NCBI GenBank assembly: GCA_008632985.1
Contig: QPGO01000147.1
Span: 182,707-202,706 of the forward strand
From: Psammoneis japonica
Taxonomy: Eukaryota
Length of the DNA stretch: 20,000 nucleotides
Direction of reading: 5' to 3'
A program made the translations under genes and the position numbers. Shown here one piece after another: positions 1,485-20,000 of this stretch (position 1 is its first letter; every line of letters begins with the position of its first letter). The notes beneath the pieces are model-generated. The model saw only the letters and a program-made list of their open reading frames with translations. It did no database searches and was not told the DNA's origin.

Positions 1485-2354
1485 CTACATTCCAAACGGA
1501 TCAATCTTGTTTTTCTTATCGCCTCGCGCCGTCTTTTTCTTTCCCGTCATTAAATCCCATACACTTGGCAATTCCAATTCTTGTTTTGTGTTTGTTGGAG
1601 CCGGCTTGACAATTGGCGTGGGATCCAATTCACCCGTCAAGACTCCATACAAGACACGCACGCCCAAGAAGAAAATACCAACTCCAGTCACACCAAAGAA
1701 TCCCGCCGCCAGACTCACCAATCCCATAACGACATTGCGAAATACACCCGACAATCTTAATACAAAGTACGACGTACTCTCGGGATTCATGGGGTGCATG
1801 GCAAAGAATTCGCCCAATCCATTGGTAAAGGTCCACAGCACAGCCGCCATGCCGAGAGCAAAGAGCGATCCGCCCAGTGCCACCCACGGATTGACCCCAT
1901 TCAAATCACGAACCTGCGCCAATCGCTCTTCTTGTTGCTTTTCCAACAAGGCTTGTTGTTCTTCCGACAGTAATTTCTCTTTTCCGAGTCCCAACTTTTT
2001 CCCCACGCTGGATCGAGCGCCGTACTTTTCTTGTTGCGTGACTTGTTCCAATTCTTCCAACAAACGTTGATTTACCGTGTTTGTGGCTGCAACCTGCTTT
2101 TCTTCTTCTTCGTCATCTTCTTCTTGCAATAGGGACGAGAAGAAAGCTCATTGGGCTGTTGCTTTTCGGGAGTGTCGTTGCTACTCGATAAAAGGCGTCG
2201 AGTAATACCGTCTCTATGACTAATCGAGGAGAACGATGGACGCATCGTGTCTTGCAAACATGGGACGTGGCGTTGTGAAACTTGTGCATCCCTCAAAAAA
2301 TAGAGCCGTAGTCAGAAGAGATAGCAAGAGACCTTTTCGTCTACAAGAGTCCAT
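1485..2354 (-). CDS. DUF3082-like membrane protein, probably plastid-targeted; 5' part interrupted (compensating frameshifts or an intron)
   Basis: ORF 1485-2129 has two hydrophobic helices (NPWVALGGSLFALGMAAVLWTFT...VFRNVVMGLVSLAAGFFGVTGVGIFFLGV), a pattern I recognise from cyanobacterial/plant DUF3082 proteins. An in-frame upstream ATG at 2354 gives MDSCRRKGLLLSLLTTALFFEGCTSFTTPRP, a signal peptide with an ASAFAP-like S-F junction. Stops lie between 2222 and ~2148 in this frame. Confidence 0.75.
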
Positions 2355-2904: not shown

Positions 2905-3147
2905 TGTGATTTTCTCTTTTAATCGACACAACGAGATGACGAGAAAAGGCAAAAGGTTCATGCGTCTCGCTCGAAGGCAACAACAACACTGGCGCATCTC
3001 ATCGGCACTCGTGCGGTGGAGAATCCAGCCGCAGTTCTTTAGATTCGCTCGATCCAGATTCGGTTGACGATGCGCAATCAACGTCGCATTTGTCACATTT
3101 AAGAACATTGGGAAAGACACACAACTTCGTCGTTCGGCCCGTGAACT
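2905..3147 (+). repeat. Dispersed direct repeat, copy 1 (possible degenerate coding segment)
   Basis: Shares long matches with 6955-7291, e.g. atgcgtctcgctcgaagg, tgcggtggagaatccagcc, cagattcggttgacgatgcgcaatcaacgtcgc and aacttcgtcgttcggcc. Confidence 0.9.
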
Positions 3148-3345: not shown

Positions 3346-3744
3346 GTGAAAGCAAAGAGACAGTGTCCGTCTCTTCATCAACACCGGTTCAGTGTGTGTA
3401 TGTGTACAATCAAGCAAATCGGCCGCCCTACTCCCAACGTGTCGGATGGGAAATGCTTGCAGATCCCGAAATACGCAGTTTTGGCTCATTTCTTTTGGTT
3501 TGGAGATGACCCCGAGGCGGTCGAAGTGGACGAGTTTCGTGATGAAGTTTTGTTGGGAGCTGAATCGGCCGTCATGTACAACCTAATAATTACCTTTCCC
3601 AAAGACGATCTCTGCTATGCTATGGTGGCCATTCGTGGTGCCAGCTATGATGGGTGGGATAGATACTCGAATGGATGCCCAGAGTCTTTCAAGGTGTGTG
3701 CATATGTTGAGACTTTTTGTGTATGTATTGTATGTCTTGTGTAA
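3346..3744 (+). CDS. Possible short hypothetical protein or exon fragment
   Basis: 132-codon ORF with globular-looking composition (KYAVLAHFFWFGDDPEAVEVDEF...). No family recognised, and its 3' end runs into a local repeat. Confidence 0.3.
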   Translation: MKAKRQCPSLHQHRFSVCMCTIKQIGRPTPNVSDGKCLQIPKYAVLAHFFWFGDDPEAVEVDEFRDEVLLGAESAVMYNLIITFPKDDLCYAMVAIRGASYDGWDRYSNGCPESFKVCAYVETFCVCIVCLV

Positions 3745-3966
3745 GAGCTCGTTCTTCCGAGACTTGCTATATTTGCCCTATCCTACTTTAAATATATCTG
3801 TTCAAGGGCGTGGAAGAAACAGAGATACTCTTGTAAAAGGAATGGGGAACCATTTGTTTACCGGGTCGGAACGTGTTGGAAGGGCATGTATTGTATGTCT
3901 TGTGTAAGAGCTCGTTCTTCCGACACTTCCTATTTTCCCTATCCTTGATTAAATATCTGTTCAAGG
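3723..3966 (+). repeat. Local direct repeat of ~83 bp (3723-3807 and 3886-3966)
   Basis: The first 38 bp are identical (atgtattgtatgtcttgtgtaagagctcgttcttccga) and both copies end in atctgttcaagg; 78 bp spacer. Confidence 0.95.
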
Positions 3967-4567: not shown

Positions 4568-6294
4568 TTACAAATCCGGATCGGGATCCTCCTCCAAGTA
4601 GGAATCAATCGTCTGTCTCTCGCTCCCATCCACACATTGAATGTCGTAGTACGCCACGAGATCATCATCAAAGTAGACATTTACAACTTTGGCCATTACA
4701 CGAGTGTTGTTGCGGCAGTAAAGCACGTCCTGGCCCTTCGTGTACGTTGAAATAGGAGTTTTCGGCGCAGGAGTGAGATGTGAATCGACGGCCTCTCTCT
4801 CTTCCCCATCAGGCATACGGACAGCATAGGTCGGGTAGAAGTCCTCGTGGGTGATAATTCTAACGACGACGGCAGGAGTGGCCTCTTGCCAACTTCGAGC
4901 CTTGTGAATCACTTTGTCACCCACCGAAAACTTTGGAGGAATCTCCAAGAAAACAAGCTCTCCTCCAGGTTCTTGCACTGGATTGGCATAATTCACTGAG
5001 CAAGGGGGGTAGCAGACAGAGTAGTGCCGAACTGTGTTGCCGTCATAGATGATTTCGTCGATTTCAGCTGGAATGGTTTTGTCGAAGAACCGATACTTGA
5101 ACGTCACCTTGTCCCCTACCGAATATAACTTTGGCTGGAGCACCTCGGAACAAGGCCCCATGACAGGGTCTTCTTTACATTTTGGATTCAAAAGCTCCGT
5201 GTCTCCTTCAGATGCTACCGAATACAACTTTGGCTGGGGCGCCTCGAAACAAGCTTCCTCGACAGTGTCTTCTTCTTCCTTTGGATTACACGGCTCGGTG
5301 TCTCCTTCAAATACCGCCGAATGCAACTTTGGGTGGGGCACCTCAAAAGGCTCCGCGTCTCCTTCAGATACTGCCGACTGTAACTTTGGCTGGGGCACGT
5401 TGTCTTTTTCTGCTTCCGATTCGACCGACGGTGGAGAGTTGTTCGTTGGAACCGGCTCGTGAAAGGCGCCACCATCGCAACCAGCATCGTTAACAGGGGT
5501 GAACCGATACTTCCTAGGGATTGACGTGGGCGGCGGAACTTCGATCGGCGGAACTTCGATCGGCGGAACTTTGATGTTGTTGAGTTTTTTTGTCCTCCAT
5601 TTGACCGACAGTGGAGAGTCCTTGTAGATAGGAACCGGATCGCGAGAGTCGCTACTGTTGCAACCAATGTCGTGAGTAGAGCTGAACTGGCACTTTGGAG
5701 CACTCGGCTTGGGAGGCAAAGCTTTGAAGATGTCTTTTTCTGATTTCATTTCGACCGCCGGTGGGGGTTTGTACATTTGAACTGGTTCGCGAATTGTGCT
5801 ACTGTTGCAACCAACACCGCGAGCAGGGCTGAGCTGGTGCTTCAGAGGGCTCGGCTTGGGAGGCAAAAGGTTGATCTTTTCTTTTTCTGACACCGGCTCA
5901 AGAAAAGCAATACTGTGCAATCAATGCCGTGAATAGGGCTGAAAGCAGGAAAAGGAACAGAAGGAATGCGACGTGAGAAACAAATGTTGTCGAACAGGCA
6001 GTACAAACAACGAGCGCAATAGAGAACTTACTGCAGAAATGGCTCATTGTCTTCAAAGGTCGAATCTGTAGTCCAACCCTCGTCGTCATAATGCGCCTGA
6101 GCCCGCTCCTCAAAGACAAGGTAGAGATAGATAAGACATACAGCCGCGAATAACCAGACGTTGACTGTCCTCAAAAAGAGAAACACGAGGAACCAGCAAA
6201 CCGCGACAAATGGGCTGAACTGATCAGGATCCATGATTCGGTCATAGGTACCAAAGAGAAACAAGGCGTTCAAGAAGAGGAAAGTGTACAACAT
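4568..6294 (-). CDS. Two-exon protein: N-terminal hydrophobic helices, Pro-rich internal repeats and three C-terminal Tudor/SH3-like beta-barrel modules
   Basis: Exon 6294-6032 (MLYTFLFLNALFLFG...) joins exon 5912-4568 in frame through a phase-2 intron at 6031-5913 (GTAAGT...TTGCACAG). Three modules start YSVGDKVTF, FSVGDKVIH and YTKGQDVLY; the last two contain YAVRMPDGEERE and YYDIQCVDGSERQT. The true start may lie further upstream. Confidence 0.8.
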
Positions 6295-6954: not shown

Positions 6955-7291
6955 GTCATTTTTCTCTTTTTATCGATACAACGAGACGATGGGCAACTGC
7001 TTCGGTTTGTCCATGAGCCGTTGTTTTCGTGCAAGCAATTGATTGCAGTCATTTGGTTGGTGGAAACAAGTCTATGATGCGGAGAAAATGCAATAGGTTT
7101 ATGCGTCTCGCTCGAAGGTGACAAGAATAACACTGGCGTATCCCAACGGTATTCCTGCGGTGGAGAATCCAGCCATAGTCCCTTAGATGCGCTCGATGCA
7201 GATTCGGTTGACGATGCGCAATCAACGTCGCGTTTGTCACATCTAAGAACATTGAGGGAAAAGAGATAACTTCGTCGTTCGGCCGGTGAAC
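6955..7291 (+). repeat. Dispersed direct repeat, copy 2, with an internal insertion relative to copy 1
   Basis: 6955-6993 matches ~2905-2943 (ttttctcttttxatcgayacaacgaga) and ~7080-7291 matches ~2940-3147. Confidence 0.9.
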
Positions 7292-8287: not shown

Positions 8288-9539
8288 TCACGGTATTGAG
8301 GTGAGGATCGGCTCCAAATCTATCTCTTCACCCTCATCGTCGTCCTCCACATCGGGAGGAGTGTCTTGCTGTGGGTTTCTGTGGATGGTGCGTTAGCGGT
8401 TAAAAAAGTGTGAGCAAGAAGCTGTGTATCATACCTAAAATAAATGAAAAGACTTACCGCATCATCTCTCTCAACAACGCCATGGCATTGTTGCGCTCTC
8501 CCGCCCAAGTTTGCATGCAGCGCTCCTGACAAGCGCGATCTTTCCTTGCACTGCTCGCCAGCTCTGACAGGGTTTTAATTGCAAGCATGCGCTCCTCCAT
8601 GGTATTATTATGCTCTCCCGCCCAAGTTTGGATGGAGCGCTCCTGACTTCCTGCCCAATCTTGAAAAGAGCGCTCCTGACTATCTAGCCATTCGCTAAAG
8701 GAGCGCTGTTGAGCATCTTGCCAATCACGAAAGGAGCGCTCCTGATGAGCGCGGTCAAGAACCATACGATCGATAAGATTATGAACACTCTGCCGGCCAC
8801 GAGGGTCGTGACGTGGCGTCCCAAACCTTCCCTCAAAAGCTGACTTGTGAAACTTGTCGATAAGAAAGTCGTTGGAAGGCAAGTAAATGCCGCGACCATC
8901 TTGCTTCCCCCTGAAGAAGCGTTCCACCAATATCTTGAGGAAATTCTTGCCCGATTTGTAGTCAGACTTCAAATCGGAGTTATCGACTAAGATTGTCTGT
9001 GCGTTGTTCGCAAGCAAATAAAGGTAGACATCCGCAAAGCGGGAGGCGGGGCAGAGGATGTAGTCAGCTTCGTATTGCTGGCCTGAGTGCCTGTACATTA
9101 AGATACGAGGGTCGTTAGTCTTGACGTGAAAGGCCACATAGTCTGAGTTGGTGTCCGTGAACACACTGAGCTTGGGTAAAACTTTGTGTCGAAAAGAATA
9201 GCACCAAGCCTTTCGGGCCTCTGCACTGCCAGTGTTCATGTGCTCGTCATACATGGTCGCGTTGTCATTCCACCAATACCCCTTGAGAATGTCCGTCTTA
9301 TCATAATCATCCTTTGGTAAGAGAGTATACTTATCCGTTTGGGGGATGGCGTTGGTCAAATGACAATAAAACTCGTCGGACAAAAGATAGCGTCGATCGG
9401 CTGGAGCGAGGCTTTCAACGGCACGGTTCAGGTCTTGTCTCATTGTCTCGAGAGCCTTGTCGCCCCAAACAAGGCCCATACGTTCAAGGCGACTCCAGAG
9501 TCGAGGATCCAACACAGATTGGGAGGGATTCGAACTCAT
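8288..9539 (-). CDS. Two-exon hypothetical protein (~390 aa) with C-terminal 11-aa QERSF..W repeats and an acidic tail
   Basis: Long ORF from ATG 9539. Intron 8457-8379 has a GTAAGT donor, GCTAAC branch site and CCACAG acceptor, and continues in frame into RNPQQDTPPDVEDDDEGEEIDLEPILTSIP* ending at 8288. Confidence 0.85.
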
Positions 9540-9809
9540 AGTATCGAGTAAACAACAACAGCAAAAATGAGCACGGCGAGAACGGCGGTGCCTTTTTTGT
9601 GTGAATGAAATGCAACCTCCGCGCCAGCCGCCAGCGCGCGGTGCGTGACAGCGCCTTTTTGCAAAAAGTATCCACGACTCGGTAGGGCGGAGTCACCGTA
9701 GAAATCACGTAGTAAGGGGGCTAAATTCTTCGCAAAATTCTGTGAGTCTATTCGTCGACCGTTTTCGCTCTAGCGGTCGCAGGTCTCCACGGTCATCCAA
9801 AAATCTCAA

Positions 9810-11760
9810 GACCAGCACCTGCTGTGCTGGTTGGCACTGGCATGAGCAAAACACAAGGCAGTTTTGGACAACAAGTTTCAGAGGAAAAAATGTAGCTTGC
9901 ACATTAAAGATGAGGGGGTGCACATGATGACAGAACTCATCAGACAATCTTGAGGCAAAAAGAAGGGCAGCTGACCTCATGATGAATTTCAGATGTGCCA
10001 GCCACAGTGCCTCAAGTTCACGACAATGGCATTTTTCACATGCAAGAAGCAATGTGAAGGGTTGCTTCCCATCACTTGACTGACCTCATCACAGGAGCAA
10101 GTGCAGTCAACAACCCTGGATCAAGAGGCACAGAAGCGTGCTGACTGCTGCGCTGAAAGTGCAAGACACTGAAAGTGTGGTTCCTTGAAAGCCTGCAGTT
10201 GGCCACAGAAGTTCCACACAAGTGTGTCATGACCCAGCTGGCTGGGTGGCACAAACGCTGGTGAGCAGCACCACAAAGAATGTGGCCATTGTTGTGCAGA
10301 GGCTCAAGCATTGCACGCTTCAATGTCTTGTGCCAGCACAAGCTGTGCACAAAATGGTCTCACAATTTTGACAAGACAGGGCTTGTTTGTCACCACCCAA
10401 GTGCCCAGACATTGTTTCTGCATGAATCAGTTGGTGGCACAGCTGTCCACTCCTCAGCCAGAACTTTCTTTAAAGCCTTGTGCCCCCGAAGTGGGTGCCT
10501 GTGCAAGCTGCTTGCTCTCCTGTGGGCTTCCTGTCTGAAACTCAACGAGTCTTTGGACTTGGCCCCCCAGCTGCTGCTTTCTCAATGTGGCGCAAGCCTT
10601 GTGTTCATGTGCCACCCTCCACTCTCTCCTCACACAGCTCTTGTTGGCTTGGCCCCACTCATCTTCTTTGAAAAGAGTGCCCTCCTGTTCATTGCATGGG
10701 CAATGCCTTGCTTCAACCTGGGCTTCTCCTTCTTGGCAAACATTGCTTCTCTCAGAGCTTTGACATGCACATGGACCATGGTGCTGTCTTGTGCACAACT
10801 TCTTGCCACTCGGCACTGCTTCTCTCAGCATTTTTCACCAGAGCTTTGATGTGCTGCTGCTGCCACTCACAAAAGAGCATGCTTGTGAGCAGATTGCTGC
10901 TGCAAATTGTGCTGGAAGAGTTTGCTTTGCAGTGAACTGGCAAACTCAGCTTTTGCAGCAAAAAGAGCTGGGCTTGCAACAACCTCCTGCTCAAGCTGGG
11001 CAAGCTGGGCTTGCAAAGACAAAGAACATCTGCTCTGGCTTTTTCAAAAGTGCTTTGACTCCTTGTGTTGGAAACTTTCAAGAGTGCAGGGGAGGCTGGA
11101 TGACAGTGCTGGTTGTTTTTAGCCCGCTTCTGCCCACACTTCAATTGCCAACAGGTGAAGCTGTCTGAGCTTGCTGGCTTTGCCAGAGCTGCAACACAGC
11201 ATGAGTGTGGGGTCATCTGGCTGGGTGCTGGACAACTGGACAAGTTGATTGTCATCTGTGAAGCCCAGCCAGCTCAGATTGGCTGGGCTGCTTGTGCGTC
11301 ACTTTGAAAAAGACAGCTGCAGCCTTTGCGTCTGTGCAGCTGCAGCACCTTCAATCTGTGGAGGAGAGCCAGCCCCTGACAGCCTCAGCTGCCTCCCAAA
11401 ACTTGCCAGCACATCAGGAAAACTCTTTGGCAACCATGGTGGTGTGGAGCCACACCGGCCCCAGCTAAAATGAGACATTTCAAATTTGGGAGTGTTGAAA
11501 GAGCCACCTGGCAACTCGGAAATCACAGCGCCACAGTTTCTCAAGCACAGGGGCTCAAGCTTTGCACCGGTGTGGCGAGAAAAAAACTCTGAGAGGCAGA
11601 CATTTTCCAGCTTTTCACAACCATCCAAACTCCAGTCCCTCAAGCTTGTCAATTGTCCAATCTCTTGTGTCAGGATGACTGCACCGTGGCCACTCCCTTG
11701 CGTGCTGAAAGGTGCAAGAAGCTCGCCGGACACCATTGTTTTTGTCCCATCTCTGGTGCG
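9810..11760 (-). pseudogene. Hypermutated LRR-protein gene relic, copy 1 (left arm of inverted repeat)
   Basis: ORF 11299-11781 reads ILTQEIGQLTSLRDWSLDGCEKLENVCL...KLEPLCLRNC...ISELPG, matching an LRR consensus. Many stops and frameshifts downstream, near-absence of CpG and TpA, and colinear homology with the reverse complement of 14790-16740. Confidence 0.75.
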
Positions 11761-12041
11761 TGCCCCAATCAACTGCCACACACCTCACACCGCCGTCGCG
11801 TCGTACCGGTGCCACACCAGGCATCTACAGTACGTACAGCATTTATCCGTGCGTGCTCTCCGTTTGACATTTCGGGAAGTGTCGAACCTACTTGCTTGTG
11901 AGGTAGGTTCGCACCAATGGACAGCGGATAAAATTTACTTAAGATCTTTCCTTAATTGACATGACATACTAGTGAATGACTTATGGTGTCCATCACGGGA
12001 AGTGACCACAATTTCGGTCACAGTGCGCCAAAAACAAGAAC

Positions 12042-12980
12042 ATGACAGGCACTAACACCAATTCACAAGTCTCATTATTTTCACCCAAACAAGCCACAAG
12101 GTTAGAAAAAGCCGTCATGAGGGCTTTCGACGCTCTCCTGCTGTTTCTGGTTTTTATATGTTTAATCGACCTGATCAAGGCAGAGCAATTTCGTACGCTT
12201 AGACGAAAAGCAAGAGATGGTGCTGGCAAACAAAAGGCAGATTATCGATTTGGTGTCGTTGTTGAAAAAGTGGCATTTGAAGAATACTATGCTAGTAGTA
12301 CAGACGTCTCGGAGAGTGATGAGGAGGAGGACGAGGAGCCTCTCAAGGTTGTCTATGTTGAACTAAATCAAGAACGGTTGACTTGCATGGAACGATCTAT
12401 TGCCGAAAACATGCCACGCATTGCCGAAGCATATCTACTCCAAGATTACGTAACAAGTCAATCCAATCAAGTTGTTGATAAACATCGAAATGCTTGGGGT
12501 GAAGTGCGAAAAGTAATTTACAAACCAAAGCTAAGGAATGGGGCGGGTTTACCTTTTGAGTACGGTGTGTCAGAGGCGAAATACGAAAACAAGAAAATTG
12601 ACGATTTATCCAATGACAAAACCATCCTTGTTCAACAAGACACTCTAGGGGTGGTCAAAAGGAAAAGAGACCATAATGGAAACAGAATACGTGCCCTTGG
12701 GAGCAAAAAGGCCCGTGATGGAACTGGTCAAGCACCGCAACTCGATCAAGTCGACGTGGAATCTACCCCATCGATACCACCAAAACGAAAACTAAGGAGA
12801 AGACGAAGAAAAAGGAGACTTGTCGTGCAACGTTGGAAGGGCTTTTTTCGAATCAAGGCAGCCTGTCACTTATGTAATCCCGATGACCTCGACAGAAGAC
12901 TACTCAAACAGGATGCTACTCTATCGTCAGGAAGCGGAACGTTCCGCCGTCCCTCAAACCTTTCAACAGTGGATGAATGA
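12042..12980 (+). CDS. Hypothetical protein (312 aa) with one N-terminal hydrophobic segment, an acidic patch and a basic NLS-like tract
   Basis: Uninterrupted ATG-started ORF with normal dinucleotide content: AFDALLLFLVFICLIDLI, ESDEEEDEE, PPKRKLRRRRRKRR. No family recognised. Confidence 0.7.
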   Translation: MTGTNTNSQVSLFSPKQATRLEKAVMRAFDALLLFLVFICLIDLIKAEQFRTLRRKARDGAGKQKADYRFGVVVEKVAFEEYYASSTDVSESDEEEDEEPLKVVYVELNQERLTCMERSIAENMPRIAEAYLLQDYVTSQSNQVVDKHRNAWGEVRKVIYKPKLRNGAGLPFEYGVSEAKYENKKIDDLSNDKTILVQQDTLGVVKRKRDHNGNRIRALGSKKARDGTGQAPQLDQVDVESTPSIPPKRKLRRRRRKRRLVVQRWKGFFRIKAACHLCNPDDLDRRLLKQDATLSSGSGTFRRPSNLSTVDE

Positions 12981-13223
12981 GTTTTTGGCCGAGCAAATGA
13001 TTATCGATTGCAACGAGTATGATACTAAAAAGACCATGTTTTGGTTTGTAAAGTAAGCGTCGGTAATAATGAAATACGGGTTAATAGAGTGCAAACCAAT
13101 AGTACCTCTAGCACTTTGTTCTGTATATACTAGTAGTAGAACTTTTCATTGGTAATGCTAGCTAGTAGTAGAGCCATGCCGGTTCATAATTTTTTAATCT
13201 ACTAATAGCTTTCGTTCTACACT

Positions 13224-14484
13224 CTAATCCAACAATTCCACAATGGGTGGCTGGAGCAATCGATTGACTTCCAAGGGTTGCCACGCTAAGCCTTCATTGT
13301 TTTCATTGCGACTCAAAATGGACGTTTGCGATGGATACTGACATTGATCCTCGGATGCGTCACCAAGGACCATGAGTTTTGACCAAAAGGAAAAGCTTTG
13401 CGACAGCTCATCGTCGTCCTCCTCCACTTCTTTGCTCATGTACCAAAGAATTGTCTAACGGGAAAATATTAGAAAAGAGTGAGATGACACTCGACGAGAG
13501 AGCGGTTGATTTACAAGACATGTTGTTGCTCCAATGTCACAACTCACTTCATTTGAAAATCTTTTTGCAATTATACACTGCAACAGCCGTCCGAATGCTT
13601 GCCGATTTGTGGAAGAAGCTTCAACGTTATTGGTAGTATGATCCTCTTGAGTAGTAGTAGTAGTATCTGCAGTATACCGTTGTGGCGGCATGCGTGGCTT
13701 GGTAAAGACAAATCCATTCCCATTGGTTCCCGTACAATAATAAATTCCATTGTATTCCTCATCCCCGGCATGCGTCACCAAGACGCGTCGTCTCAAACCC
13801 AACATGGGTACAGGCACAACCGCCGTTGTTGTTGGTTGTACTGTTTGCGCAGTCGTTATAATAGTTCCTTCCATTTGTTCCTTGGCTCTTAATAGCTGAA
13901 AGACGTTTGTAATTTGTCGGTCTTGTTGTAATTGGTATGTTTGTTGTGTGGCGGACGTTCGTGCCAAGCTATGAAAGCGACTGCACGTTAACCCCACTTG
14001 CATCAAGCACTGACACGACAAGAATTCAAATATCCTCAAAACGACATCGTCGACAATGAGCAAGTGTTGTAAGAAACTGGAACTTTGGGATGCCTTTTTC
14101 GTAACGTCGTTTTGTTGTTGTTGTTGTTGACTATTCAGGAGATCGCAGTGTGCGTTTGCCAGTTGCTCAAAGGGCGCAAACAAAATTCGAATAGGCTGGA
14201 GTCTGCTTCAAGGCAATCACATCGTTGCGTGGTATTTGCATGAGCCAATGACCGAACTTCTCCAACGAATCCGTATCAAACTGAGGAGAAGAGGAACGAC
14301 TTCGTTTCTGTGTATGCAAGGGGACGACTCGAGGATCCGAAGCAGAAGCAACGTCGCCATTCATGTTGTTGTTGTTATTTGTAGCGTGACCTGGCGATGA
14401 TGATGGTTCCTCCATGTGCTCGTCATACACTTCTGCTTCTTCTTCTTGACCTATTATTCGTTCTTGTTCTTGTGCTGCATTCAT
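13224..14484 (-). CDS. F-box domain protein with one intron and one apparent +1 frameshift
   Basis: F-box motif FLQHLLIVDDVVLRIFEFLSCQCLMQVGLTCSRFHSLA. A phase-0 intron at 13547-13455 (GTGAGT...CTAAT...GTTAG) joins in frame to TILWYMSKEVEE...VELLD*. The N-terminal ORF 14167-14484 joins only if one C is removed near 14173 (FVCA-FEQLANAH). Confidence 0.8.
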
Positions 14485-14789
14485 GCTACTCCCGTGCCGT
14501 TGTTGTTGCGGGTGTGTACGGTCCTCACTTTCTCTTTGTTGCAGTCATCTCTGTCACTGTCATCGAGAGATTTCAGATTTGGCCTCCACATCACACATGA
14601 CATTGCGCATGCGTTGAGTTTTTTCTACGCAAGCTCGTACCGGTACATAGCCGTCGTAGAAGACATTTTGTATTCAGTGTCACATTTTCTCTATTCAAAT
14701 AGTCCTAGAGAGTATAGGCGCGAGGTACGGTCGAGGCACACCCAGGTGTTCGTTCAGCGGTGACAACAAGTGGGTTCGAGTTGTCATGC

Positions 14790-16740
14790 TTGAGTCAGTC
14801 TGCGGCAGAGTGACCCTGCCACCAGAGATTGGACAATTGATGTGCTTGAAGGACTTGAGTTTCGATGGCTGTGAGAAAAGCTGGAAAACTGCTGCCTATC
14901 CAAGCTCTTTTTTCTCTCTTCTATGCAAAGCTTTGTGACCCCCTCTTGCATTTCAGAAACTGTGCTGTGATTTCCAAGTTGCCAGGTGGGCTCTTTTAAC
15001 CACCAAATTTGAAATGTGTGAGTTTGGTGTGGAGCAGCTCTGCCACGGCTGTTCTCAGGGGCCGGCTCTCCAGCTTGAGAGTGCTGCAGCTGTGCAGCAG
15101 GCACTCTGGGGCTTTGATGCCCTCTCTTGAAATGGTGCAAGCAGCTCAGCCAATCAGGGCTGGCTGGGCTTGACAGATGACAGTCAACTTGCCCAATTGC
15201 CACACACTGCCTGGAGCCAGATGACCCTGCACTCATGCCACATCACTTGCTGCGGCTCTGACAAAGCCAACAAGCTCAGACAGTCTTGCCTCTCAGCGGT
15301 TGAAGCAAACACAGAAGTGGTCCAAAGAAAAATCAACATTGCCAGCCTGCTCCAACTCCAAGTGAGGATGTGCACAGGCTCGATTCCCATCGCTGGCCCA
15401 TCTCTGCATTTGGCACAACAAACTCTTTCAAAATCATCTTTTTCCCAAATTGAACAAGGGTGAGCACACACAAGTCAGTGTGCCATGCTGCGCAGAGAAT
15501 CAAGCTCTTGTGTGGTGGATTGTGCACCACCTGGGTCTGGAACAGGAGTCAGACACATCCTTGAAGAGGCCAGGGACACTCTTTGTCTCTTTGCTGCTGC
15601 CAGCTTGCTTGGCTTGAGCAGCAGGTTGTTGCAAGCCATGCTCCTTCTGCTGCAAAGCTGGGTTTGCTGGTGCCTGCTGCAAAGCAACCTCTTCCATCAT
15701 CATTGGAGAGTTTTTTTGTGAGTGTGGCAGCAGCGGTGCACCAAAGCTCTGTTGCAAAGTGCTGAGGGGGGGGGGCAGGGTTGGGGTTGGCAACAACTGC
15801 GCACCTGTGGCTGGGGCAGCACCAAGAAGAAAAAAAAGCCCCAGATTGGAGCTGGGCATTGCCCTTGCAATGAGCGGGACACTCACTTTAGCAAATGATG
15901 TGAGCAAGACACCAAGCTGACAAGCTGTGTGAGGAGTGGAGGGCAGCACATTGTCACAAGGCTGCTGTCATTGCTGCTGACATCATGACCACAAAATCCA
16001 ACAATGGGGCTCATGCCATTGAGAAAGCAGCAGCTGGCACTGAGCCATCTGGTGAAGCCAATGCCAAGACAAAGGCCAATCTCAAGGACTCAGAAGGCTT
16101 TTGGACAGGAAGCCTGCAGGAAAGCAAGGGGCTTGCACAGGCACCCAAATTTGAGCACAAGGCTTAAAAGAAAGCTCTGGTTGAGGGGCAGAAAGCTGCA
16201 CTGTCATCATTTGGTGTGTGTGAGAACAGGGTCTGGGCACTTGGGTGGTGACAGACAAGTCCTGTGTTGTGAAAATTGTGCCATTCTTGAGACATGCACC
16301 AGAGCTTGAGGCAGCCCCAGTGCAGCAATGGCCACATTTTTTGTGGCGCTGTGCAGCTTTTGTGACAAGTGGAAGTTGGGTCATGATGGCACATCTGTGG
16401 AACTTCTGCAACTTCAGCATGGGCTTCTGTGCACTTTGCTGCCCCATCCTGGGTTGCCTGCTGCACTTGCTCCTGTGACGAGGTCAGGTGATGGAGAAGC
16501 AAGCCAGAGCATTGCTTCTTGCACATGAAGAATTGCTGTCACAAACTTGAAGCACCATGGCTGGCACATCTGGAGCTTGTTCTGAGATCAGCTGACCTTT
16601 TTGTCTCTCAGAATTTGATGAATTCTGTCATCATGTGTGCGCCCTCATCTCAAATGTGCAAGCCACAATTTTTCTCTGAAACTTGTCATTTAAAACTGCT
16701 CTCTGTTTTGCTTGTGCCAACCCCAAGCACAGCATGCAAT
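14790..16740 (+). pseudogene. Hypermutated LRR-protein gene relic, copy 2 (right arm of inverted repeat)
   Basis: From ~14809 it reads VTLPPEIGQLMCLKDLSFDGCEK (LRR). Shared blocks with copy 1 include ccacctggcaact(c/t)ggaaatcacagc, agccagatgaccc, aagctcagacag, gtctgggcacttgggtggtgaca and ctgcacttgctcctgtga. Confidence 0.75.
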
Positions 16741-17619
16741 GCACACAACAGCTGCCTTTTTCTTTTGTTGTCTCACATTTGTGCCTGGGTGCAGCATTTG
16801 CACAATCCCCTGGCTCATTTGCAAACCAAGTGGTCTGCAGGAGCCCATTCTGAGTCATTGGGTGGCCCTTTTCTCACAGAGCCAGTTGACTTCATTGCAC
16901 ACCCACTTCTCACGGCAGGCTTTTTCGTTCCACATGCTGAGCCTTTTTTCCAAACAGCATCTCTTGCTCGAGCAAAGGCATGCACAGCTGCTCTTGACAA
17001 TTTCTGCACGCTGCTTGCACCCACATTTGAGCACCAGCAAATCTTCTGTGGGAACATTTAGCCCCAGAAAAACTTTGTGAAATGTTGTGAGAGCTGCAGA
17101 GCCAATGCTTTGCATCAGAACATCAGTGCTGTTGGCTCTTTTTGCAGCTCAACAGCCTGTCCAGGAGCATCATGCAAGCGCACACAAAGCAATGTCAAAA
17201 ATGCACCAGCAACAGCATCCTGGACCTTTTCAGGTGACCTTTTTTGTCCAACCTTTTTTGGCACATGCCCAAGCTTCTGCCACAAAGACCTCTCTGCAGC
17301 CAATCATGAAACACAGCATCTGCAACCATTTGTGTCAAACAGGTGCAATCTTGGAAATCTTGTCATCTTGGCACCTGTGCTGACATGCACAATGGGTGCA
17401 CCACACTCAATGAGAAGTGGCAATTTTGAAAAATGCTTGTGCCCACTCTCAACTGGTGCATGAGCAACATTTTTGCAATTTCTGCTCTCTGCTGTCTGCT
17501 CCCCTGTTGGCTGAACAGCCACAGAGAGCAGGCAGAGCAACATTCTGTGGTGGCAGCCAGCTGGGCTGGCATTTTTGCACTTGAGGTGGCAGTGTTGCAG
17601 CAAAACTGTGCAGGAATGG

Positions 17620-17870
17620 GGGGGTCCAAGCACTCAGGCAGCAACAGATGAGTCTGGTGTTGCAGAGATTGTGAGAAAATTCTGCACACGCAACTTGCAT
17701 GTGCAAGACAGCAAGACACATGGAGCTTGAGTCCCTGTGTGACAATGGCTGCATTTGGCACTGTGCAGTTCTGCGCAGCCGCTGCTTCATGCAAGATGTG
17801 TCAACTGCATGATGGCCAGTTGGGTCATGCCTTGCCTGTGTGGAACTCCCATGGGCAAAAGCTGCTGCAC
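17620..17870 (+). pseudogene. Third, partial and more diverged copy of the same relic
   Basis: gcttgagtccctgtgtgacaatggctgcatt (17725-17755) aligns with gcttgagcctctgcacaacaatggccacatt (copy 1, 10309-10279). ASWVMPCLCGT aligns with ASWVMTHLCGT. Full extent not determined. Confidence 0.7.
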
Positions 17871-18178
17871 AGGTTTGGACCAAATCTGTGGGCAAAGGCT
17901 TGAGCCAAAGTGGCAGTGCTGGCCACAGGCAGGTGGCCCAGAGCAACAAGTCTGTCCATCTTGCACACAAGAGATGTGCTGTGGGACACAGCTGGGGTGC
18001 CACTTGGAAGATTCAAAAGGTCAGCTTCAAATCCCAAACATCATTTGCAGCCTGGGACAAAGACAAATCACTGACCATTTGTCTCACAATTCATCTGTCT
18101 CCTCAGTTGCATCTCTGTCTTTTCCTGTGCTCATCAGCAGAAGAAGGCATGACCAACACCCTTCCAGCAGACAAGATG

Positions 18179-20000
18179 TCACAGTTGATGAGAGATTGCG
18201 ATGCGAGGTTTGTTGTCCAACAAAGTTGTCTGGTCAATTGTTGAGTGTGCCAATGCCATGGGCTTGAGCAAGAGCCACACGCAGCTGCCACAGTTGCTGC
18301 ACGGTGTTGGAAGAAGTTGTGTGAGGCACATGATCCATCCAGTTTCCAGGGCATCTCTTGATGATTGCCTGGACAGGATGTGCAACACAGAAGCTGGCAC
18401 ACTGTCAGAAGCAGAGAAGATGCTCTGCACTTTGCCGCACCTGAACTTTGCCTCTGATCCCATCAGCACACAAATTGTCTCCTCCCTGACAGCACTGACA
18501 TGGAGCGCCGGACTTGCAAATCCTTCTGTTTTCCACTGTCTGCTCTCAAACACATCCACTCGGAGAAGCCCATGCTCCCATGCCAAGGAATCCACCCAGT
18601 CCAAATTGTGAGCATCCAGGACTTTTGGATGGCATGCCACTGGGAGTGTCACTTGGGGTGGGCTGCGGCTTGGCATGCTGTTTGGAGCATGACTGAAGGT
18701 GTGACTGGAACTGGGGCTCGTGCTTGGGAATTTGCTGGGAGCTGGGCTGGTTGGACGGAGCAAACCCTGCACTTGGAGCCATGCTGGGAGAAGTGCTTGG
18801 TGCTGAACTCAAACTGGGAGCTTGAGATGGCATCTTTGCAGGGTTCAAGGCTTGATTTTGTTGTCACTTCCACCATGGTGCCTTGATGGTGCATGCATTG
18901 GCAATGCAAACGTCAATTTCAAATGGAGTCGCTGCATTTGCAACATCACCACCCAACAGCATTGCCTCAATTTGATCCAGAAAACTGGATGTTGTCTCTG
19001 CAAATGGATCATCCCTTGTTAAAATGTGATCAGCTTTGGTGACATTTGCAGAGCTGCTGTGCCAATGTTTTCAATTTCCATGACTGAACCCACCATGTGA
19101 AGGCATTGCTTGGTTTGAGTCGTTGTCAGGATCACCACTCACCATCGCAGCCCTTGAGTGTCAGGCTGCCAAGTTGGTTGTTCAGCATTGGGTTGCAAGC
19201 ATCTGTCACAAACTGCACTTGCTGGTGCACAGAGTCTACATTGGCAGAAATTCAATGAAACAAATGACAACACTTGGGGTGTTGGCTGTTTTAATCTTCT
19301 TGCTGAGACTTTTGGTTTTGTTGAACTTTGCTCCATTTGGTCCAGTGCATGTGACAGGGCACCTGGTGGCATGACATCAGAGAAATCTTGACGTTCACAG
19401 TGTTTGCCTTGAAAATTCACAGCTTCTTGATGCAAAATTGCCACCCGCATTTGAAGGCCAAGTTTGGATGTCACCTTGGCATTCTGGATTGGGTTCTGTT
19501 TTCATCTTGGGCTTCGCATCTCAAATCAACCTGCACAAGCATTAAATGTGAGTTGGCACTGAATGGTTTTCAAAACAAGAGAACAAGAGCCAAAGAAGTC
19601 TGAGTGCACCTTTGTGTTGCAGAACTCTTGTGTGGTTGGTTCTTGACTTGGGGCGTTGCTGGGAACCGGGCTGCTGCTTGGTGATGACAAAGGCGCCGCA
19701 CTCGGCACTGGACTTGCACTCGGAATCAAGGATGGGCTGCTGCCAGGTTCTTGGCTCTTGCCTGTTGTTGCTGATGGCTGGCTGCTTGGAGCAGGGCTGG
19801 CACCAGGTGATCTGCTTGGCACATTGCTCAGAGCTGGACCACCACATGGAGCTGCACTGGGTGAATCACTCGGTGCCGGACTTGAACTTGGAGGCAGCAT
19901 GGTGTGCATTGGCACATTGCTTGGTGCTGGACTTGCACTGGGGGCATCACTGGGCATGGATCTTGGAGCAGAACTTGCACTGGGTGATCCACTTGGTGCA
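18179..20000 (-). pseudogene. Decayed gene for a diatom-type Pro/Ser-rich (PSxxPS) extracellular protein; continues beyond the window end
   Basis: Two blocks of PSxxPS repeats (19526-20000: PSDAPSASPAPSNVP...PSNAPSQEPT; ~18640-18830: PSQAPSLSSAPSTSPSMAPS, then PTSPAPSKFPSTSPS in another frame) are separated by non-repetitive segments with stops and frameshifts. Same CpG/TpA loss. Confidence 0.7.

Follow-up and report, generated by a model that had tools for sequence, protein, structure and literature searches.

What could have removed two different dinucleotides, CG and TA, from bounded parts of a diatom genome and spared the DNA beside them? The question was raised by a 20,000-nucleotide stretch of the Psammoneis japonica assembly GCA_008632985.1 (contig QPGO01000147.1, positions 182,707 to 202,706; hereafter the window, with positions counted from its first letter). 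The window belongs to the nuclear genome of a pennate diatom and contains two old, inverted and diverged copies of a repeated, now non-coding segment. These copies, here called domain A and domain B (Table 1), were nearly free of CG and TA and saturated with TG and CA. A model's reading of the letters (the original prediction) had proposed that a second, targeted T:A to C:G process acts at TpA in such domains, beside the decay of CpG. The erasure is real, restricted to the two domains and mutational in origin.

Extent and reality of the erasure

Within 17101–17700, TA was absent where base composition predicted 38.8, and CG occurred twice (36.2 expected); CA and TG numbered 82 (~39 expected) and 69 (~36 expected), respectively. 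The interval 9810–11780 held 5 TA and 22 CG, with 117.1 and 129.2 expected on the same basis. The counts given in the original prediction for these two intervals were exact on recount. Measured against the rates in the window's own flanks, domain A contained 22 CG (113.6 expected) and 5 TA (87.8 expected), and domain B 50 CG (297.8 expected) and 11 TA (230.0 expected), deficits with Poisson p values from 1e-25 to 1e-82. Both domains thus retained CG at 0.17–0.19 and TA at 0.05–0.06 of the flank rate, and carried TG and CA at 1.5–1.7 times that rate.

The observed/expected ratios (o/e) in 500-bp sub-windows gave the same picture. They ranged from 0.06 to 0.25 for CG, from 0 to 0.08 for TA and from 1.73 to 2.13 for TG+CA in the domains, compared with 0.68–1.44, 0.32–0.86 and 0.95–1.41, respectively, in the remainder of the window. 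This agrees with the abundance of TG/CA and the ordinary CG and TA content of the neighbouring DNA that had been described before. Six-frame translation yielded 0.03% Tyr in the domains versus 2.56% in the flanks, and the stop codons of the domains in six frames were 325 TGA, 20 TAA and 8 TAG. The coding relics had rightly been described as lacking Tyr and rich in His, Cys and TGA, yet this bias follows from the dinucleotide content in every frame and hence is no evidence of coding per se. The GC content was 50.8% in the domains and 47.0% in the flanks. The counts of TG and CA on the strand shown were nearly equal (A: 224/221, B: 641/576), which fits action at the palindromic CG and TA steps of double-stranded DNA and speaks against a bias coupled to transcription.

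As an outside control, 55 stramenopile or diatom metagenome loci (310,650 bp, 2861 sub-windows of 500 bp) were gathered through an alignment of the DUF3082 family, to which a gene in the flank belongs. The medians were 0.67 for TA o/e, 0.88 for CG o/e and 1.19 for TG+CA o/e. A TA o/e below 0.2 occurred in 6 of the 2861 sub-windows, all six with a CG o/e of at least 0.5 and a TG+CA o/e of at most 1.34. The highest TG+CA o/e in the control set was 1.65 (domains: at least 1.73). No second erased domain was present among the control sub-windows, which derive from metagenome contigs, in which repeats are poorly assembled. The state of the domains is therefore abnormal, not necessarily unique. A mild joint dip over 630 bp, with raised TG+CA and normal flanks, was seen at 1480–2110 of a 13-kb AT-rich stramenopile metagenome contig (L015; CG 6 vs 16.2 expected, TA 25 vs 45.9 expected). 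As a second case it was weak, and it was discounted, as chance or codon bias may explain it with 2861 sub-windows scanned.

Support for the letters themselves came from the public sequencing run X1, which contained 82% of the words sampled from 9500–19499. Its contigs in the Logan assembly spanned 8711–10865 (2153 nt; 11 other letters, 8 gaps), 10838–11791 (958 nt; 4 other letters, 4 gaps), 15603–16586 (987 nt; 13 other letters, 9 gaps) and 18807–19522 (716 nt; zero differences). The X1 depth was ~55 over both domains, equal to that of the flanks. X1 is possibly the window's own source sample, so that its support is not fully independent, and its library type is unrecorded. These separately assembled contigs reproduce the domains. 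They exclude an assembler artefact and make a base-calling artefact unlikely. Modified CG and TA might in principle have been miscalled as TG/CA in base-calling or polishing, and the differences between the window and the X1 contigs, mainly small gaps such as the 8 in 2153 nt, suggest a long-read assembly. This explanation is nonetheless very improbable, since the contigs carry the same CG- and TA-free sequence at ordinary depth and A and B also differ from each other by many ordinary substitutions and indels.

Probable conversion to TG and CA inside the repeat copies

The lost CG and TA could be balanced against the gained TG and CA. Per 1000 strand-symmetrised dinucleotides, from flank to domain, CG changed by −46.9, TA by −41.7 and TG+CA by +88.8. 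With complete in silico conversion of the flank CG and TA, TG and CA each reached 120.8, close to the 114.8 observed; conversion of CG only gave 98.8 and of TA only 92.4. Decay of CpG alone explains about half of the gain in TG+CA, so that an extra source as large as the TA deficit is needed. The loss was also selective, as TA fell by 95% (from 43.9 to 2.2 per 1000) while AA/TT fell by 9% (from 81.4 to 74.3). The domains were in addition short of GA/TC, and the commonest context of TG was TGC/GCA (562 of 1661). A conversion rule preferring the product that makes the dinucleotide GC was dropped, as it brought simulated GC only to 75.3 (90.3 observed).

These figures bear on biased repair, by which G:T mismatches would be resolved to G:C through a mismatch glycosylase or through GC-biased gene conversion between copies, turning TA gradually into CA/TG. 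Very-short-patch repair in Escherichia coli is held to deplete CTAG in a similar manner. Copies as old as A and B would have given a weak bias enough time, and the GC content of the domains exceeds that of the flanks. A bias towards G:C should, however, spare CpG, which was erased, and the selective fall of TA is TpA-specific and not a general shift from AT to GC. We regard biased repair as distinctly unlikely.

Comparison of the two copies placed at least part of the conversion within this genome. A corresponds, in inverted and diverged form, to the first 2 kb of B, and B extends 3.2 kb beyond the common part. In a global alignment (MAFFT), the 1732 aligned positions were 69.9% identical and differed by 314 transitions and 208 transversions; 31 of 189 TG of A stood opposite CA in B, and 15 of 187 CA of A opposite TG. 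A stricter comparison was restricted to 1146 well-aligned columns. There, TG in one copy opposite CA in the other accounted for 22 of 66 double differences, the runner-up being AG opposite GA with 5. The copies had 81 TG and 100 CA in common, but 0 CG and 0 TA. A residual CG stood opposite CA or TG 8 times, and a residual TA opposite TG 3 times. Since TG opposite CA is the outcome of independent conversion of a CG or TA on either strand, some of the conversion took place after the duplication. Strand-coordinated clustering of these sites was not detected (11 runs vs 9.7 expected, z = 0.71). We conclude that CG and TA were in all probability lost by mutation to TG/CA inside the repeats.

The element may instead have arrived poor in TA, and perhaps in CG, for example from a viral or other foreign source, with ordinary CpG decay as the only process acting in place. 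It has no identifiable family, and its GC, AT and AG/CT contents deviate from the conversion model in a way that hints at a non-host ancestral composition. Conversion of CG only, however, falls short of the observed TG and CA, and the excess of TG opposite CA together with the zero shared CG and TA points to conversion after duplication, although it does not tell sites of CG origin from those of TA origin. Selection on composition is itself unlikely, as all six phases are broken. Arrival of a TA-poor element thus appears unlikely.

The borders of the depletion followed those of the repeat. In A, the depletion set in at 9791 and the homology with B at ~9811–9830; at the left border of B, the depletion edge lay at ~14778 and the end of homology at ~14795. 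The depletion edges at these two borders were thus ~20–40 bp from the homology edges, and the spacer was untouched. Edges within tens of bases of the repeat, together with a spared spacer, argue for recognition of the repeat sequence rather than spreading chromatin. In the first 240 bp at the left edge of B, three TA were kept (14897, 14922 and 14997) within a CG-poor zone.

The X1 depth over parts of B was 2–6 times the baseline, which indicates further copies elsewhere in the genome. About 90 bp of B (15367–15454) matched six X1 contigs whose sequence to either side was unrelated and contained CG; the X1 depth in this bin was 323 (baseline ~55), and the segment is a short dispersed motif. 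Duplication was not sufficient for erasure, at least at a length of 216 bp, as a direct duplicate of that size in ordinary DNA (2935–3146 and 7076–7291, 86% identity) had retained 16 shared CG. Between its copies, 6 of the 31 substitutions were CA in the first versus TA in the second, in a single direction and on one strand. They could reflect incipient editing of TpA to CpA in copy 1, or C to T changes at CpA in copy 2.

Known systems and candidate processes

The nearest likeness was found in the chlorarachniophyte Bigelowiella natans. Of 231 mutations that its mutation-accumulation lines had acquired in two integrated viral regions, 230 were A to G or T to C, all at TpA, and the rate there was ~6e-7 versus 3.5e-10 elsewhere (bioRxiv 10.64898/2026.01.13.699255). 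The same genome contains TpA-poor clusters rich in CpA+TpG and enriched in transposon and viral domains, and the authors, Mettrop et al., proposed an ADAT2-like adenine deaminase on the basis of a candidate search only (bioRxiv 10.64898/2026.01.13.699255). As in the integrated DNA of nucleocytoplasmic large DNA viruses (NCLDV) and virophages of B. natans, the TpA loss in the diatom was matched by a gain of TpG+CpA, affected both strands and was confined to particular inserted or repeated segments flanked by normal DNA; the effect in B. natans was likewise interpreted as genome defence by DNA editing. The two cases also differ. In B. natans, a rhizarian with recognisably viral targets, mutations were caught arising and TpA was mildly depleted (rho 0.45 in the NCLDV region), whereas in the diatom the target is a repeat of no recognised family, TA had fallen to 5% of its rate in the flanks and the end state was read from sequence alone. 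CpG has 0 occurrences in the available text of the preprint, whereas CG was erased as well in the diatom domains.

Residual TA (2.2 per 1000) and CG (9.9) can be set against 229.6 TG+CA in the domains. Assuming equilibrium, this implies that TA was lost at least ~100 times faster than it was re-created, and CG ~23 times faster. The ~100-fold bias for TA appears to be of the same order as the excess in B. natans.

The CpG side has a more familiar counterpart. In diatoms, DNMT5 methylates CG in transposable elements and repeats, and many diatoms possess DNMT4 as well, a relative of the fungal RID (PMC9998398). The domains resemble products of methylated-CpG decay in the change of CG to TG/CA within repeats and in their sharp borders, and differ from them in that TA was removed too and that such decay covers only about half of the gain in TG+CA. 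Repeat-induced point mutation (RIP) of fungi is similar in that transitions are limited to duplicated sequence, stop where the duplication ends and destroy genes. RIP, however, turns CpA into TpA, so that TpA rises (PMC2621366), while in the domains TpA nearly vanished, CpA and GC content were raised and A:T pairs moved towards G:C. The chemistry of fungal RIP is therefore excluded, as it creates the dinucleotide that the domains lost. CpG and UpA are under-represented in RNA viruses and cytoplasmic RNAs (PMC3829696), but that suppression is moderate, results from selection on RNA and leaves genes intact, whereas the erasure in the diatom is near-total, lies in nuclear DNA and occurs where reading frames are broken.

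The literature search (full text, few subscription journals) turned up no description of diatom repeats losing TpA, nor of CG and TA being erased together. The "new signature" of the original prediction was thus only partly new: hypermutation at TpA alone is already described in the B. natans preprint, while co-erasure of CpG, saturation and a diatom host were not found in print. The domains would add a second lineage of major ecological weight to the TpA process, there carried to completion, coupled to CpG erasure and restricted to repeat copies.

With moderate confidence, we read the domains as the product of two repeat-targeted processes. Two context-specific kinds of transition, confined to the repeat copies and near completion, would both have ended in TG/CA. 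CpG would have become TpG/CpA by deamination of 5-methylcytosine in a repeat presumably kept CG-methylated, and TpA would have become TpG/CpA by A to G changes on either strand, as seen in B. natans. The putative editor would most likely be an enzyme that deaminates adenine at the T-A steps of duplex DNA. The tRNA adenine deaminases act in the invariant context U33-A34, which is compatible with such a requirement. TG/CA would then be an absorbing state, in which all transitions from CG or TA end and from which return would be slow. Targeting would go by repeat identity and not by chromosomal neighbourhood, with homology, pairing or small RNA as the possible guide, and the inverted arrangement of A and B could once have yielded a hairpin RNA. 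The second process foreseen at TpA was partly supported, by the restriction to domains, the mass balance, the excess of TG opposite CA and the borders at the repeat edges.

The base attacked at TpA might be thymine instead of adenine, if a TET/JBP-type enzyme made 5-hydroxymethyl- or 5-formyluracil there and the product mispaired with G, giving T to C. Dinoflagellate DNA contains 5-hydroxymethyluracil preferentially at TpA and TpC, and 5-formyluracil is known to mispair with G. A to G on one strand and T to C on the opposite one are, moreover, indistinguishable in sequence, and both strands were equally affected. We know of no such thymine modification in diatoms, and the single experimental precedent favours an ADAT2-like adenine deaminase, though by candidate search only. 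Thymine chemistry is rather unlikely.

The inverted orientation of A and B also invites an explanation by ADAR-like hyperediting of double-stranded RNA from the inverted repeat, fixed in DNA through reverse transcription. ADAR is an animal enzyme with the 5'-neighbour preference U>A>C>G, so that ApA is edited too, but AA was hardly reduced in the domains. Editing of this kind would leave CG in place, and no reverse transcriptase or retroelement signature was among the Pfam results for the six frames of the domains. The preference of ADAR for a U 5' of the edited A (bioRxiv 10.64898/2026.01.13.699255, Discussion) does speak for it; the explanation as a whole is hardly credible.

Several points weigh against the reading of two repeat-targeted processes. 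The evidence comes from one locus of one genome. The direction from TA to TG/CA rests on the mass balance and on an ancestor assumed to be host-like in its dinucleotides, and TG/CA sites derived from CG are inseparable from those derived from TA in these two copies. The conversion model leaves residuals, with GC at 90.3 versus 55.2 simulated, AT at 44.6 versus 66.2 and AG/CT at 73.8 versus 60.1; either the composition of the ancestor differed or further processes act. At the right edge of A (11680–11800), 5 CG and no TA were present over ~110 bp, so that the borders of CG and TA depletion do not coincide, a hint that each process may have a footprint of its own. As A and B differ by 12% transversions, a slow, long-lasting bias would suffice, and neither a burst nor a "defence" is needed. 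Finally, A and B matched no Pfam family at E ≤ 0.1 (six frames, X at stops), and with no recognisable family a foreign or selfish origin is conjectural.

If the TpA arm is active and targeted, defence by A:T to G:C editing would extend from one chlorarachniophyte to diatoms, which are major primary producers, and could be a general feature. Borders defined to tens of bases would then make the guidance of the editor directly testable, and a natural enzyme that deaminates chromosomal adenine at a defined step would be of interest to builders of base editors. If slow biased decay is at work instead, it would still be a strong local mutation bias that diatom annotation and models of molecular evolution have to accommodate. 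In the former case, the end state, DNA without CG and TA in which TG/CA is doubled, Tyr codons are absent and all stops are TGA, may serve as a simple marker for silenced or foreign algal DNA. We offer as a speculation, and a doubtful one, that diatoms own a TpA-specific editor of duplex DNA, guided to repeat copies by homology or small RNA to within tens of bases, which, with CpG decay, drives repeats into a CG- and TA-free dead end. As a rhizarian shows the same TpA signature, such a system would be old and widespread in the group of stramenopiles, alveolates and rhizarians (SAR), and nature would have provided a guided adenine base editor.

Relic element and neighbouring genes

Table 1. Coordinates of the domains, homologous arms, open reading frames (ORFs) and other features in the window
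Feature	Position	Strand	Remarks
Domain A	9791..11790	none	~2.0 kb repeat copy, CG/TA-erased, TG/CA-saturated
Domain B	14760..20000	none	>5.2 kb repeat copy, CG/TA-erased, TG/CA-saturated; extends past window end
Arm of A homologous to B 14795-16757, inverted	9811..11700	-	blastn segments of 69-79% identity; MAFFT; edge alignments
Arm of B homologous to A	14795..16757	+	same blastn and MAFFT alignments
Longest CG- and TA-free run	17179..17689	none	510 bp; longest outside the domains 64 bp
Unaffected spacer between A and B	11791..14759	none	CG o/e 0.9-1.1, TA o/e 0.39-0.86 (500-bp sub-windows)
ORF in spacer	12042-12980	+	ordinary gene
F-box ORF in spacer	13455-14207	-	F-box-like PF12937, E 4.7e-06
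Motif LPPEIGQL..L.DLS.DGCEK, in B	14816..14878	+	translation
Motif LPPEIGQL..L.DLS.DGCEK, counterpart in A	11611-11673	-	translation
Ser/Pro-rich open frame	19526..19999	-	157 amino acids, extends past window end; translation
Further Ser/Pro-rich frames	18546-18863 and 18179-18808	-	other phases; translations
DUF3082 gene	1485-2129	-	flank gene

Reading frames were broken in all six phases of the domains. Among 20 ORFs of the window that were searched, Pfam families were found only for the DUF3082 gene and the F-box ORF, both outside the domains. Searches with translations from the domains were negative: the minus-strand frame 11299–11784 had no protein homologue at E ≤ 0.01, and the minus-strand frame 18179–18808 gave 0 matches with phmmer against 1.84 billion representatives, no IMG/VR locus and no usable match in the ESM Atlas. 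A DNA pattern of the best-conserved A/B block, made degenerate for pyrimidines and purines (Y/R), had 0 matches in metagenome contigs. No terminal or long internal repeats marking a transposon were found in B. The element is classed as an old repeated segment, and neither a transposon nor a virus is named.

The short motif at the end common to A and B resembles, we assume, a leucine-rich repeat; the frames carrying it had no Pfam leucine-rich repeat match at E ≤ 0.1. On the minus strand, from 20000 to ~18650, a Ser/Pro-rich peptide was encoded in shifting phases, and this part of B contained degenerate repeats of 42–135 nt. Judged from the translations, the Ser/Pro-rich frames are probably the relic of a minus-strand gene for a Ser/Pro-rich protein.

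The top named relatives of the DUF3082 protein were from the pennate diatoms Cylindrotheca, Seminavis and Nitzschia (49–55% identity), and unnamed relatives reached 64%, so that the host is a diatom absent from the proteins searched. The minus-strand ORF 4568–5920, which matched no Pfam family, contained imperfect tandem repeats of ~99 nt and related matches of 134–147 nt at 5116–5890. A second public run, X2 (labelled "DNA?"), covered the flank genes and skipped 113 nt with GT..AG ends (3687–3801), and so appears to behave like contigs of spliced transcripts. No X2 contig covered A or most of B, which does not imply that they are silent. Among the public runs listed as containing words of the window, none was labelled as RNA. 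A contig of 3110 nt in X2 (depth 234), or 3463 nt in X1 (depth 62), was ~88% like 18617–19241 and continued into CG-containing sequence. Its 69 mismatches over ~580 nt were close to the ~58 CG+TA sites of normal DNA of that length, and it may be an intact, expressed paralogue of 18617–19241.

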